From IMG/VR virus record IMGVR_UViG_3300006917_000001: a stretch of DNA of 31,891 nucleotides. One strand, given 5' to 3'. Below, one piece after another: positions 19,033 through 23,573 of the stretch. This DNA comes from an uncultured virus (IMG/VR IMGVR_UViG_3300006917_000001). Lineage: Duplodnaviria; Heunggongvirae; Uroviricota; Caudoviricetes. A program made the translations under genes and the position numbers. Every line of letters starts with the position of its first letter. Position 1 is the stretch's first letter. The notes beneath the pieces are model-generated. The model worked only from the letters and a program-made list of their open reading frames with translations. It was not told the DNA's origin and ran no database searches.

Positions 19033-21819
19033 TTACGGAGGACAACATTGATCACTTGTGGTTGGGAGGATAACAGCCTCTACCACTGTTGGAATGTTCA
19101 AATATTCTTGCTGCTTAGTCGGCTTTGTCACTTTCGTAACGTAAATTCTAGTATTCGGTGGAAGAATAACCTCCCTTTCACTCGCATTACTAGATATGGA
19201 AGCCACTGGACACCCTTTCACACCCGGACCCACGGCTAATCTCATGTGGACATTGCCACTCCACTTCTTTGGATCATAAGAAGTGCTAAGATTTCCACGA
19301 TCAGCAACAACAGAACCAACCTCTGGAACATCCCCAGAATATTTACGACTTAGTTTCAGACCAACGGGAAGATCTACAGATTTTTCCATTACCGTTTTAG
19401 AAACCAAAAGGGCTTCTTGATACCAACCCCAATCTTTCGTACCCTTTTTTGGTGGAGTGACGCTCCTTAATGCATGATTATAATCCTCGTAAGAGCTGCC
19501 CGTGTATTTTTGAATGTATATTTCTTGAGTAAAATCCAGAGTCTTTGCGAATGCATCCTCCATTGGTTTCATAGGAGTGGGGCCATAGCTTGAATCAAGT
19601 TTTATAAAATCACTGTTCTCAACAAGTTTTTCCAAGTTTTCGGTATTGAATCCATTCTTTTCCAAGAACTCAGAGTTCTTCTTATTGGCAATGACGTTCC
19701 AATAACCAACCTTTTCTAAAACTGGTGCCCCAGCAATCGGCGTATCCTTCGCGGTTGCTTTGATTTTATTGCACTTGGTCGCCACTTTTTCTGATGTGGA
19801 CTTGTACGACTCCCCTGCTCCAACCGATTTACTAACAGTTTTTTCCTTGTTGGTCTTAAGAGTGTTGAGGATCTGGGAGAGTGCGTGTTTGACCGTTGGA
19901 TTTTCTTTTACCTCTTGCTTGTACTGCAAGTTTACAAGCCCGTCATAATCCTCTTTCGTAAGCAAATCGGACATTCCTTGCATCTCCTTTTTAGTTCCCA
20001 TGACCTTTGAATGCAGATCAGAACCAGGAGTCAAGGTTTCAGCCCAAACGTCTAAAGATTTTATTCCCGCTTTTAGCATGTTACGATGCTCACCCCATTC
20101 TTTAAGGGTCATGCTATATTTCTTAGAGGACGCAGCCTTTGCTGCTTTCTGCGCAGATGGTTGTTTTGCCGCAACTTCTTGCTGCTTCTTACTCACCTCC
20201 GATGTGCCTTTGTTCATCTGAGCAAAAAAGGCTTCTTGGGTGGCCTTCATGGCATTGGCTGATTCGACAACAAATTTAGAAACAGCAGCAAATTCTGTAA
20301 ATCCACCGGGCGTGGATGTTCCATACTCGTCATTCACTTTAGTTATTTCAGAATTAAATGCCTCCATGACACTCGTTGAATCAGCACTCCACTGAATAGC
20401 TGCTTCCGCCACCTTATTGATAATTTTCTGATTAGCAGGATGCATCGAAGCCAAATTGATAGGCTTAGGTGGCATGGACACATTAGGAACAGCATCCGGC
20501 GACTTACCAGGGAGTTCTAACTTCGGTTTTTGATCCGGGGAAGAACTGGCGACCTGAGCTTGATAAGCCTCCACCGCGGCCTTTGTAACCTTCTCTTCTA
20601 AAACTGCTTTTTCGTATTTTGCTTTCATGAGCTCCATACGAGTAGCAATAGTTTTCCCAAGAGCCTTCTTTTCTGCTTCCGTTCCTCCGTGGTACTTATC
20701 CACCAAGTCTTGGATTTTCTTGGGGGTCATACCAGAGTTTACCACGCGACCCATTGTCTCAATATGCTGCTGCTTCGTCATATCCCCGAAAACAGCACCT
20801 CCCATCGTGTTGTAAACATGATTTCGTAAGGTATCGTAGTCCTTCAAATCTGGCCCGTAAGGTTTCTTGCCCGACCCTCCACTAGCCTTGAACTCCAACG
20901 AACCCCCAGCATCCACGAGCGTCAGTTTGCCACCAATGTATTTGCAATTGTCCGGCTGAGATGGATGGCCAATCACATCCCAATTCCCCAATAAAGCGTG
21001 AACAGCGTAATCCCTCGCTGCATCTGCCTTGACATTGGGGTTATCCCACTTTGGAACCACGGACTCTTGTGCCCACTCCGAAGCTACAGCAGTTTTCCCG
21101 TTGAGGTCCACCAAATGGCACTTGATCGCTTGAGCTCCAAACGCCTCGTAAAGCTTGGAGGCCAACACCTCGTTATGAGCACGGGCTGGATTCGTAGGAG
21201 TCTTGACGTAATATTCTTTACCGTCAGGACCTTTGAATTTCCCACCTTCTTCCGTTCCAAGCTTTCCAGAAATCTGGACCCAACCCTTGGTAGACAATAC
21301 GGCGGTGTCCTCTTTAGTCACCTCCGCTTTTTCCGGGATCTCGTTGACCGATTTGAGCTTGGAGGCCTCCAACAAAGTATCTAACGCTTTAATCGTTGTT
21401 TTCTGGTACGTATTGGGAGAGCCGGATACTTTAAGGGACTCCTTTGCCGCTGCCAATTCTCCCCAAGCCCCCGCCGCCGCCAACTTCTCATATAATGCAA
21501 TTTTCTTGAGGGCTGCTTTAGAGCCTGGCTTATTGGCATCCCATTTCGAGGTGTCCACCTTCGAAAGTTTCCCAATATTACCAGGAATAGGATTTCCAGC
21601 CGCGTCATGAAGCTCCTTTGGAGCGGCAGTCACAGCCGCAGACCAAGAACCAGCCGTCCATTGACCCCCTTGGGGACCACTCGCTACCCGGGGCTGGTTC
21701 GGGTTAAATTTCAACCCATCCAGGACCTCGTAGCTCTTATCATTTTCGTCTAAATCAAAGACAATCCCATCCAGGGAGTCCAGGGTAAACCGACGCCGAT
21801 GCAAGGTTTCTTCGGACAT
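19033..21819 (-). CDS. 928-aa multidomain effector: QPR..GGQW tag, HipA/PI4K-like kinase domain, helical linker, C-terminal VIP2-like ADP-ribosyltransferase
   Basis: Kinase: GKLGTEEGG, YYVK, NEVLASKLY, LGNWD...DN, LVDAGGSL. ART: YTGSSYEDYNHALR, LSRK, LSTS, EREVILPPNT (R-S-ExE). Confidence 0.85.
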   Translation of the reverse strand: MSEETLHRRRFTLDSLDGIVFDLDENDKSYEVLDGLKFNPNQPRVASGPQGGQWTAGSWSAAVTAAPKELHDAAGNPIPGNIGKLSKVDTSKWDANKPGSKAALKKIALYEKLAAAGAWGELAAAKESLKVSGSPNTYQKTTIKALDTLLEASKLKSVNEIPEKAEVTKEDTAVLSTKGWVQISGKLGTEEGGKFKGPDGKEYYVKTPTNPARAHNEVLASKLYEAFGAQAIKCHLVDLNGKTAVASEWAQESVVPKWDNPNVKADAARDYAVHALLGNWDVIGHPSQPDNCKYIGGKLTLVDAGGSLEFKASGGSGKKPYGPDLKDYDTLRNHVYNTMGGAVFGDMTKQQHIETMGRVVNSGMTPKKIQDLVDKYHGGTEAEKKALGKTIATRMELMKAKYEKAVLEEKVTKAAVEAYQAQVASSSPDQKPKLELPGKSPDAVPNVSMPPKPINLASMHPANQKIINKVAEAAIQWSADSTSVMEAFNSEITKVNDEYGTSTPGGFTEFAAVSKFVVESANAMKATQEAFFAQMNKGTSEVSKKQQEVAAKQPSAQKAAKAASSKKYSMTLKEWGEHRNMLKAGIKSLDVWAETLTPGSDLHSKVMGTKKEMQGMSDLLTKEDYDGLVNLQYKQEVKENPTVKHALSQILNTLKTNKEKTVSKSVGAGESYKSTSEKVATKCNKIKATAKDTPIAGAPVLEKVGYWNVIANKKNSEFLEKNGFNTENLEKLVENSDFIKLDSSYGPTPMKPMEDAFAKTLDFTQEIYIQKYTGSSYEDYNHALRSVTPPKKGTKDWGWYQEALLVSKTVMEKSVDLPVGLKLSRKYSGDVPEVGSVVADRGNLSTSYDPKKWSGNVHMRLAVGPGVKGCPVASISSNASEREVILPPNTRIYVTKVTKPTKQQEYLNIPTVVEAVILPTTSDQCCPP

Positions 21820-23573: not shown

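Follow-up and report, generated by a model that had tools for sequence, protein, structure and literature searches.

A pair of neighbouring genes in an uncultured virus of the Caudoviricetes (IMG/VR record IMGVR_UViG_3300006917_000001) raises the question of what a short peptide does when it recurs ahead of the effector parts of two proteins. The stretch of DNA analysed, termed here the window, has 31,891 nucleotides (nt) and is part of an 86,048-nt single-contig genome. On its minus strand the gene for the portal protein, a gene for a MuF protein that ends in an ADP-ribosyltransferase (ART) domain (MuF-ART; 582 amino acids (aa); 21825-23573) and a gene for a 928-aa kinase-like/ART protein (19033-21819) are consecutive. 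An earlier, sequence-only reading had proposed that the peptide, termed here the QPR motif after its Gln-Pro-Arg core, is a portable head-loading, ejection or maturation signal that would be cut after a lysine, and that it could also be a point of recombination for the exchange of toxin ends. The comparative data leave little doubt that the two peptides are copies of a widespread family of junction tags found in the context of phage head modules, and the modules that phages carry as cargo within their heads apparently begin at this tag.

Copy 1, KYRPAQPRVPADSPQGGQWT (22476..22535, minus strand), occupies residues 347-366 of MuF-ART, between the MuF domain (aa 185-310) and the ART domain (aa 411-581), and copy 2, KFNPNQPRVASGPQGGQWT (21655..21711, minus strand), occupies residues 37-55 of the 928-aa protein; both lie exactly where they had been reported. 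A six-frame search of both the window and the full contig with the regular expression (regex) QPR.{1,12}G.W matched at these two sites only. The stricter form [FYW].P.QPR.{2,12}G.W matched twice against 0.005 matches expected from the six-frame composition of the whole contig, and a single one of 300 residue shuffles gave any match to it. Pairwise BLASTP of the two proteins aligned the motif segment with 11 identities in 17 positions at an E-value of 0.68, which is not significant alone; the weight for the kinship of the copies lies with the family evidence. The DNA strings that had been noticed in both copies are real: the copies share 11 nt (CAGCCCCGGGT) and, in a second block of 21 nt, 19 of 21 positions. 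The flanks had been called unrelated; this holds locally, but both proteins end in an ART domain, and these two domains show weak mutual similarity (E 0.036).

The family was delineated in viral contigs with a degenerate DNA pattern encoding N-P-x-Q-P-R, 3-8 residues and then G-x-W-T, which recovered at least 121 stretches. Among the matches listed, overlapping loci included and with loops of 3-8 residues allowed, 95 of 107 in-frame matches had a loop of exactly three residues; few matches contained a stop codon or lay in very short open reading frames (ORFs). Since N, P, Q, P, R, G, W and T were fixed by the pattern, they are uninformative as conservation, and the positions that count are those outside it: in 52 unique viral contexts an aromatic residue before N-P, Asp after QPR (42/52) and S/D-G-G-G after W-T were conserved. 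The aromatic residue was required in later scripts; at the first scan one match in a long ORF was without it. A profile (A1) made of 59 motif windows and searched against 1.84 billion cluster representatives matched 3,269 proteins at E<=1e-3, 437 at <=1e-10 and 23 at <=1e-30, and the details of these matches given below rest on the best 150 of the 3,269, of which 28 were scanned for domains. In 416 canonical copies from these best-matching proteins, in which Pro, Arg and Gly were fixed by the regex, the first residue is Phe in 223, Tyr in 184 and Trp in 9, with Leu, Met, Ile and Val also allowed by the regex; the residue that follows is Asp in 178, Asn in 140 and Ser in 87, and Asp stands after QPR in 394. 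The canonical consensus can be written [KA]-[FY]-[DNS]-P-x-Q-P-R-D-x-x-G-[RK]-W-T-[SD]-G-G-G and a long-loop form [KR]-[FY]-[NDS]-P-x-Q-P-R-[VADH]-P-[AK]-G-[ST]-x-x-G-G-[QRE]-W. Long-loop copies number about 48 in the stored proteins (51 regex matches, three of which are canonical copies with a chance downstream match), often share a protein with canonical copies and most commonly have Val after QPR (12 of the 51 regex matches). The identity of the variable positions is 0.367 within proteins vs 0.241 between proteins, a greater likeness that could reflect common descent of the copies as well as a partner that they share and that their own genome encodes.

The two window copies have the same rare form of the motif, namely Q-P-R, a loop of 7-8 residues in place of the canonical three, and then G-x-W-T, with Val and not the canonical Asp after QPR. 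Copy 1 is a typical long-loop member, and the loop of copy 2 is one residue short of the long-loop consensus. The first-position aromatic is present in both (Y348 in MuF-ART, F38 in the 928-aa protein); it is followed by N-P in the 928-aa protein and by R-P in MuF-ART, an Arg outside the family's usual Asp, Asn or Ser, and the ‘KYRP’ start of the MuF-ART copy recurs in L224, a relative with a homologous protease. The Gly-rich tract after W-T reads DGGGGSGGG in MuF-ART and is weak in the 928-aa protein (AGSWSAA). A hidden Markov model (HMM) built from 54 canonical copies of other phages picked out the ORF of the 928-aa protein as the best match among the six-frame ORFs of the contig (E 2.1e-4, 16.9 bits). 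The same ungapped canonical model was not significant on the MuF-ART copy (E 9.7, bias 18.8), which fits the long-loop subclass.

The motif appears to be undescribed so far: no model in Pfam or NCBIfam covers it, a profile search of the PDB returned 0 chains at E<=10, and no description was found among the results listed for full-text literature searches with motif strings and topic words. Peptides of such kind occur in phage and mobile-element proteins, and the motif may therefore be familiar to annotators even if undescribed. Term searches of the main texts of PMC5576092 and PMC5512222 found no mention of it, though the supplementary alignments of PMC5512222 may show it, and it is unmentioned in the MuF passages of PMC3482391, a review of polymorphic toxin systems.

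The proteins that bear the motif place it in the head module. In a Pfam scan of 40 motif ORFs from viral contigs, 21 had a portal, MuF or prohead-protease domain: portal in 11, MuF in eight (one of which also has portal and one of which is below the cut-off) and a prohead protease of the S78 or XkdF type in three. Only effector or other domains were found in nine of the 40 (ART, ART-PolyVal, Zeta toxin, PI3/PI4-kinase-like, ParB_N, glucosaminidase, DUF3626 and a weak DUF2213), and ten had no domain. In the portal fusions the motif is C-terminal of the portal domain in all 17 cases (11 viral, 6 genomic). Head-module carriers (portal, MuF, S78 prohead protease) stand before the motif and effector domains, among them ART, Zeta toxin, RNase and kinase-like ones, after it, and the proposal that the motif is portable, tied to head-module carriers and placed ahead of effector parts is supported by these comparative data. 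The window has the same arrangement, in the order portal, MuF-motif-ART and leader-motif-kinase-like/ART, with S78 protease and capsid genes downstream.

The 28 scanned best profile matches are polyvalent proteins, with MuF in six, Portal_Mu in one, ART-type domains in ten, GNAT in five and no family in five; NUDIX, ParB_N, topoisomerase IB, 2H/LigT, Zeta, DUF3626, DUF7178, HNH and cytidylyltransferase domains also occur. Among the best 150 of the 3,269 matches, two copies per protein were found in 23, three in 42, four in 37, five in 22, six in 16, seven in eight and eight in two; successive copies are spaced by a median of 249 residues (5-95% range, 131-604), and the last copy stands a median of 286 residues from the C-terminus. 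Rescanning with the profile revealed diverged copies missed by the regex and single domains bracketed by the motif, as for example in the arrangements motif-ART-motif...MuF (L063), motif-ARTPolyVal-motif-ART-motif (L060), motif-ParB_N-motif-ART (L050) and MuF preceded and followed by a copy (L040: motif...MuF-motif). The L044 polyprotein is of the same kind, being formed by a tag, 200 aa, an S78 protease, a motif, a coiled coil and two further motifs. A genomic polyvalent protein (L172:1586-5038) combines an anti-CBASS Acb1 domain (aa 157-299), the motif (aa 304) and NUDIX (aa 407-525).

Where carrier and cargo are encoded by separate genes, the motif goes with the module that follows. It lies within 40 residues of the most upstream possible start in 34 of 111 5'-complete ORFs (within 15 residues in 11 of the 111) and within 40 residues of the stop in 4 of 103 3'-complete ORFs. 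Among cultured phages the motif was found, by tblastn with weak E-values (0.4-6), only in cluster-H mycobacteriophages and Nocardia phage P3.1, whose head-module proteins begin MSFNPRQPRD.. and MARRKFNPRQPRD.., with the motif at residues 3-15; the tagged protein is annotated as a maturation protease (phrog_12708), has no Pfam family and carries the single motif copy of its genome. A tblastn match to Microviridae VP4, which is without the Arg and Gly of the motif, was rejected as chance. In 72,556 plasmids tblastn gave no match, which is weak evidence given a 27-residue query.

In bacterial genomes, the canonical DNA pattern occurred in 72 stretches when one genome each of 185,579 species was searched, with about one chance match expected by our own estimate, and an aromatic residue precedes the motif in 66 of the 72 contexts. 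Most of the hosts belong to the Alphaproteobacteria (Hyphomicrobiales, Afipia, Rhodospirillales), Actinomycetota or Planctomycetota. A Pfam family was found in 20 of the 63 bacterial motif ORFs scanned, including portal (6), S78 (1) and TPR (2); the further families comprise PBECR1, ART-PolyVal, ART, Acb1+NUDIX, NUDIX, topoisomerase I, CHAP with a PG-binding domain, two CdiA-CT RNase A-like toxins, a weak MafB19 deaminase and a hydrolase. Many of the remaining ORFs are small, with a helical N-terminal part followed by the motif and then by an end that varies, and where they form arrays the paralogues are constant up to about 20 residues past the motif and divergent afterwards. Ten loci of such small proteins were inspected for their neighbours: four lie amid terminase, portal, S78 protease and capsid genes, followed by DUF2019, and NTF2-type immunity-like genes (Imm-NTF2-2) occur at two.

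The junction is also seen in an alphaproteobacterial S78 family (3,564 matches), in which the motif directly follows the C-terminal helical tail of the protease in 28 of the 121 members listed. Motif-bearing members are longer (median 320 aa vs 214 aa) and have variable ends, including RNase A-like toxins, and the 93 of the 121 listed members without the motif stop about where it would start. The same family also has long-loop forms nearly identical to those of the window, such as R-Y-S-P-N-Q-P-R-V-P-A-G-S-P-E-V-G-Q-W-T. Alphaproteobacterial terminase-portal-S78 protease-capsid modules with toxin-like genes were observed at L196, L189, L141 and L144 and with proteins P0280-P0400; in these modules the toxin-like genes are joined to or lie beside the protease, some being CdiA-CT RNase A-like, and are followed by DUF2019 or NTF2-type immunity-like genes.

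Structure prediction with AlphaFold2 (AF2) of a natural fusion of S78 protease, motif and toxin gave an S78 core with a predicted local distance difference test score (pLDDT) above 90, a helix (173-219) that ends one residue before the motif aromatic, and the motif itself at a pLDDT of about 80, with a bridge from R226, the Arg of QPR, to W232 and then a disordered Gly-rich linker. The predicted anatomy of the tag is a helix leading to the invariant aromatic, [DNS]-Pro, a hairpin with Q-P-R and G-x-W-T as its two sides, and a flexible Gly-rich tract; the hairpin loop has three residues in the canonical form and 7-8 in the long-loop form, as in the window.

As for what the tag does, we would set at about even the chance that the machinery for head assembly and maturation reads it as a handling signal, the most likely form of which would be a recognition site for the S78-type prohead protease. 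The tag follows proteins that become part of the procapsid (portal, MuF, S78), separates successive modules in polyvalent proteins and opens stand-alone cargo proteins at their N-terminus; inside the procapsid the S78 protease would cut the cargo modules off their carrier and off each other, and the freed modules would exit with the DNA. For stand-alone proteins the same handle may also help import. In the window, the MuF domain would bring in the ART as MuF-tag-ART, and the 928-aa kinase-like/ART protein, which is MuF-fused in a relative, would be handled as leader-tag-cargo. The window's own S78 protease is then a candidate enzyme or receptor for the motif.

Protease recognition is preferred among handling signals for several reasons. 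Effectors fused to the portal would have to be cut free before they could have an effect in the host. The motif is found at every junction in the polyvalent proteins, and it is the only conserved element in the linkers of the portal fusions. Moreover, the protease is embedded between copies in L044, toxins are joined to otherwise complete proteases precisely at the motif, and the window encodes both an S78 protease and an HK97-type capsid.

A number of results weigh against this function. Capsid domains are absent from all the motif-bearing ORFs scanned, and the motif is thus not linked to the single cleavage that is known in heads of HK97 type. In viral loci with a protease homologous to that of the window, the motif was found within 10 kb in only four of 80, two of the four being the same phage, and although several of the 80 loci end short of the MuF region, this makes the protease family independent of the motif. 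A homologue of the 928-aa protein has a different, Cys-containing motif at the same place, and no head gene could be recognised within 2.5 kb at four of the ten bacterial small-protein loci (L150, L174, L139, L133). For a 54-residue peptide of the window by itself, AF2 gave a pLDDT of 60 and no secondary structure, a result that says little on its own. The conserved stretch of 14-20 residues is long for a protease site, and copies at the extreme N-terminus have nothing upstream to release, so that a pure cleavage-site reading leaves their retention unexplained.

A docking tag that works without cleavage is the best of the alternatives and a serious rival, though rather unlikely in itself; docking might also be combined with cleavage, as in the capsid targeting sequence of phage T4. 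The hairpin would bind a site in the procapsid (scaffold, portal crown or inner face of the capsid) or the DNA end, and would hold or order the cargo or lead the modules into the portal channel at ejection, with multiple copies serving as multiple anchors. Such a tag would be kept with the downstream module, near the start and seldom near the stop, as is observed; it could be the sole copy in a genome, at residues 3-15 of the stand-alone head-module proteins of actinophages; and it could sit on the prohead protease itself, as in L037 and L044. The defined local fold predicted at the end of a helix, and the unrelated Cys motif in the same position in relatives, as for exchangeable handles, agree with it as well. 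Fusions to portal, MuF and protease, however, have kept the tag although they enter the head in any case and should have no need of it; no result points to a receptor; and the motif is conserved across phages of Actinomycetota, Alphaproteobacteria and Planctomycetota despite very diverse capsid and scaffold proteins.

An unlikely explanation is that the motif is a passive module boundary, whereby a structural stop joins unrelated domains and its DNA offers a short patch of homology for cassette swaps, much like the junction motifs of other polymorphic toxins. The question can be addressed at synonymous sites: where amino acids are identical, codons are identical in 266 of 405 cases within loci (0.66) vs 0.42 between loci. 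Most of the excess is due to the alphaproteobacterial arrays (about 0.9), whose paralogues have 10-12 of 12-13 motif codons identical and diverge about 20 residues past the motif; the modules inserted in MuF between near-identical copies (L224, 13/18 codons identical) and the extreme variety downstream of the motif also speak for exchange at the boundary. Among copies in phage polyvalent proteins, on the other hand, codon identity is 0.3-0.55, near the baseline of 0.42, yet the peptide is kept, and selection in phages therefore acts on the peptide. Furthermore, a passive linker would not need the aromatic, Arg and Trp found in 416 of 416 copies, Arg being fixed by the regex. The recombination point suggested by the sequence-only reading finds some support in the near-identical codons of the alphaproteobacterial arrays but not in the window, whose copies share just blocks of 11 and 21 nt, nor in the phage polyvalent copies, which differ at synonymous sites about as much as unrelated copies.

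HK97 cleavage occurs after a lysine, and the sequence-only reading had placed the cut after the Lys that precedes the aromatic, which would leave effectors with the N-termini YRPAQPR.. and FNPNQPR..; this version of events is now improbable. Lys is the commonest residue at position -1 (137/416), a basic residue is found at -1 or -2 in 243 of the 416 copies, many protease-toxin fusions read ..LERR-YSP.., and ORFs beginning M-x-[FY]-N-P resemble mature ends. The capsid junction with which the motif had been compared, RK-ALIDD, does exist in the window (R246-K247, then A248), just ahead of the Pfam capsid match, which starts at aa 264; cleavage there is presumed. A rule of cleavage after Lys nevertheless finds no support, as position -1 is also Ala (116), Glu (46) or Gly (27) in the 416 copies and is Lys in just 8 of the 52 viral contexts, there is no conservation upstream of the aromatic, and proteins that start M-x-[FY]-N-P have nothing upstream to be cut off. 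Autocatalytic cleavage at [DN]-Pro was rejected, since Ser is found there in 87 of 416 copies and Ala or Arg in some. Least probable is a role in the host after ejection, in which the motif might engage some conserved factor of the host or govern how the injected module refolds, is activated or is turned over, e.g. as an N-degron if the module began with the aromatic residue. The first residue is always aromatic, and conservation among phages whose hosts differ widely would agree with a partner common to all hosts. The motif, however, is also present on portal, protease and scaffold-like proteins, for which no action in the host is expected, Leu is absent at the first position although the regex allowed it, which misfits the N-degron residue set, and no result points to a host partner.

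If the preferred reading, a handling signal recognised by the S78-type protease, is taken further, the motif may tentatively be regarded as a cargo signal that can be transplanted and that serves HK97-type heads at large, perhaps along with particles resembling gene transfer agents in Alphaproteobacteria, in the sense that 14-20 residues would suffice for any protein module to enter the procapsid and be released by the protease for ejection. Were this true, the motif sequence alone would define the full set of injected proteins of thousands of uncultured phages. A tag defined by sequence would list injected phage proteins straight from metagenomes, and many of the 3,269 clusters have no known domain after the tag. 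The release of polyvalent, portal-fused or MuF-fused effectors would become testable, with a defined peptide, a candidate S78 enzyme and cultured actinophages that have a single copy, and one element would tie together MuF toxins, polyvalent proteins and a class of protease-fused toxin/immunity pairs from alphaproteobacterial head modules.

The closest parallels come from several known systems. The capsid targeting sequence (CTS) of phage T4 is an N-terminal portable peptide of the internal proteins and Alt that is removed by the gp21 prohead protease. Both it and the QPR motif are short portable peptides ahead of head-packaged, injected proteins, an ADP-ribosyltransferase included, and that of T4 is linked to a protease. 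Their sequences, however, are unrelated, and the T4 peptide is N-terminal only, whereas the QPR motif is also internal, in up to eight copies, and stands behind portal, MuF and protease; T4 uses gp21 and the present heads are of HK97 type with S78, and targeting and removal have been shown for T4, whereas the motif is known from sequences. Polymorphic toxins have pre-toxin junction motifs, such as VENN in CdiA or the DPxGL motifs of Rhs. They too are short motifs between a constant delivery part and a variable toxin, with paralogues that diverge shortly after, and immunity-like genes adjoin the toxin (DUF2019 and Imm-NTF2-2 for the QPR motif). They differ in sequence and in that the vehicle of the QPR motif is a phage head, and the QPR motif is in addition found on structural proteins and at borders between modules that are not toxins. 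Viral polyproteins that contain their own protease likewise repeat the same peptide between folded modules, and in L044 the motif flanks the protease on both sides; the motif stretch (14-20 residues, predicted hairpin) nonetheless exceeds the usual protease sites, and cleavage here would be presumptive.

Two published groups of proteins overlap with those found here. MuF-ART resembles the MuF polymorphic toxins of the main text of PMC5576092 in its N-terminal MuF part, its C-terminal toxin and the adjoining portal gene; unlike them, it has no small immunity ORF directly downstream. The multi-copy motif proteins share ART-PolyVal, LPD3, PBECR, ParB_N, GNAT, NUDIX and TopoIB domains with the polyvalent proteins of PMC5512222, the main text of which proposes that these are processed via zincin-like metallopeptidase domains and not, as considered here, by a prohead protease at a conserved site.

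In the window's own lineage the tag is sparse. Close relatives of MuF-ART in viral contigs were limited to three identical copies, and a word-based search with the junction region returned two distant proteins. The MuF-ART architecture recurs in L262 with K-Y-S-P-D-Q-P-R-V-P-A-G-N-S-D-G-G-E-W, and in L224 a MuF gene (945-1970, 2280-3182) is split by a module flanked by two near-identical K-Y-R-P copies. The second ORF of L224 has no ATG ahead of its motif copy and may depend on another start, a frameshift or readthrough, and at L262:4632-7415 the MuF domain has an insertion of about 300 residues, apparently inside a conserved Cys-rich segment and intein-like in look. From residue 80 on, the 928-aa protein is homologous to P0006 (1,010 aa, E 2e-45), in which this cargo is fused to MuF without the motif. 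Other relatives have a second motif in the same kind of place, K-[AG]-[FW]-C-P-T-G-x-G-G-G-x-D-[NS]-S-C. It was observed after MuF, flanking inserted modules and before the homologue of the 928-aa protein in phages with a window-like protease (L256, ORFs 1778-3388, 3343-4701 and 4601-6283; L275:408-3368; L279:3673-4788; P0005), with four copies in three adjacent ORFs in L256. A scan for S78 co-occurrence near viral motif loci (23/80) was set aside, since its HMMs held motif and Gly-rich columns and were not clean.

All the window genes named here are on the minus strand. The portal protein (PF04860, 23595..25343) is encoded directly upstream of the MuF-ART gene. In MuF-ART, the MuF domain, presumed to be the carrier part, is PF04233 (22644..23021; E 1.1e-9, 39.4 bits, cut-off 29.6), and the ART domain, the cargo part, matches PF03496/PF01129 (21831..22343). 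Between copy 1 and the ART domain lies a flexible linker (22359..22475) with the Gly run, acidic repeats and a Ser run; the acidic D-L-P-D-D units are encoded by three 30-nt tandem repeats (22360-22449) that are 67-100% alike. The ATG of the 928-aa protein is 5 nt past the MuF-ART stop codon; a 36-residue leader without a family (21712..21819) precedes copy 2, and the cargo part (19033..21654) has a weak HipA-like kinase match (aa 196-244, 15.6 bits, under the cut-off of 27) and a C-terminal ART match (aa 835-909, 35.4 bits). There is no small immunity ORF directly 3' of MuF-ART, the next gene being that of the 928-aa protein, which is followed by ORFs of 176 and 104 aa without a family. The S78 prohead protease (14892..16496; domain at aa 187-287, 23.1 bits, cut-off 21) is fused to a scaffold-like C-terminal part, and the HK97-type major capsid protein (13192..14814; PF05065, aa 264-527) has an N-terminal part of about 250 aa.

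Past its S78 domain, at residues ~313-322, the window's protease-scaffold protein reads E-K-Q-P-V-R-V-P-V, which is faintly like the Q-P-R-V-P of the motif; its homologues conserve K-R-P-x-x-V-P-V at this site, and the likeness is probably unrelated. Three ORFs of the structural module (4027-6693, 10676-11356 and 17122-17559, minus strand) have very long serine runs. One window protein, of 888 aa, is mostly Ser over about 500 residues, two other ORFs end in Ser runs, and the ORFs at 4027-6693 and 10676-11356 have their N-terminal region in common.

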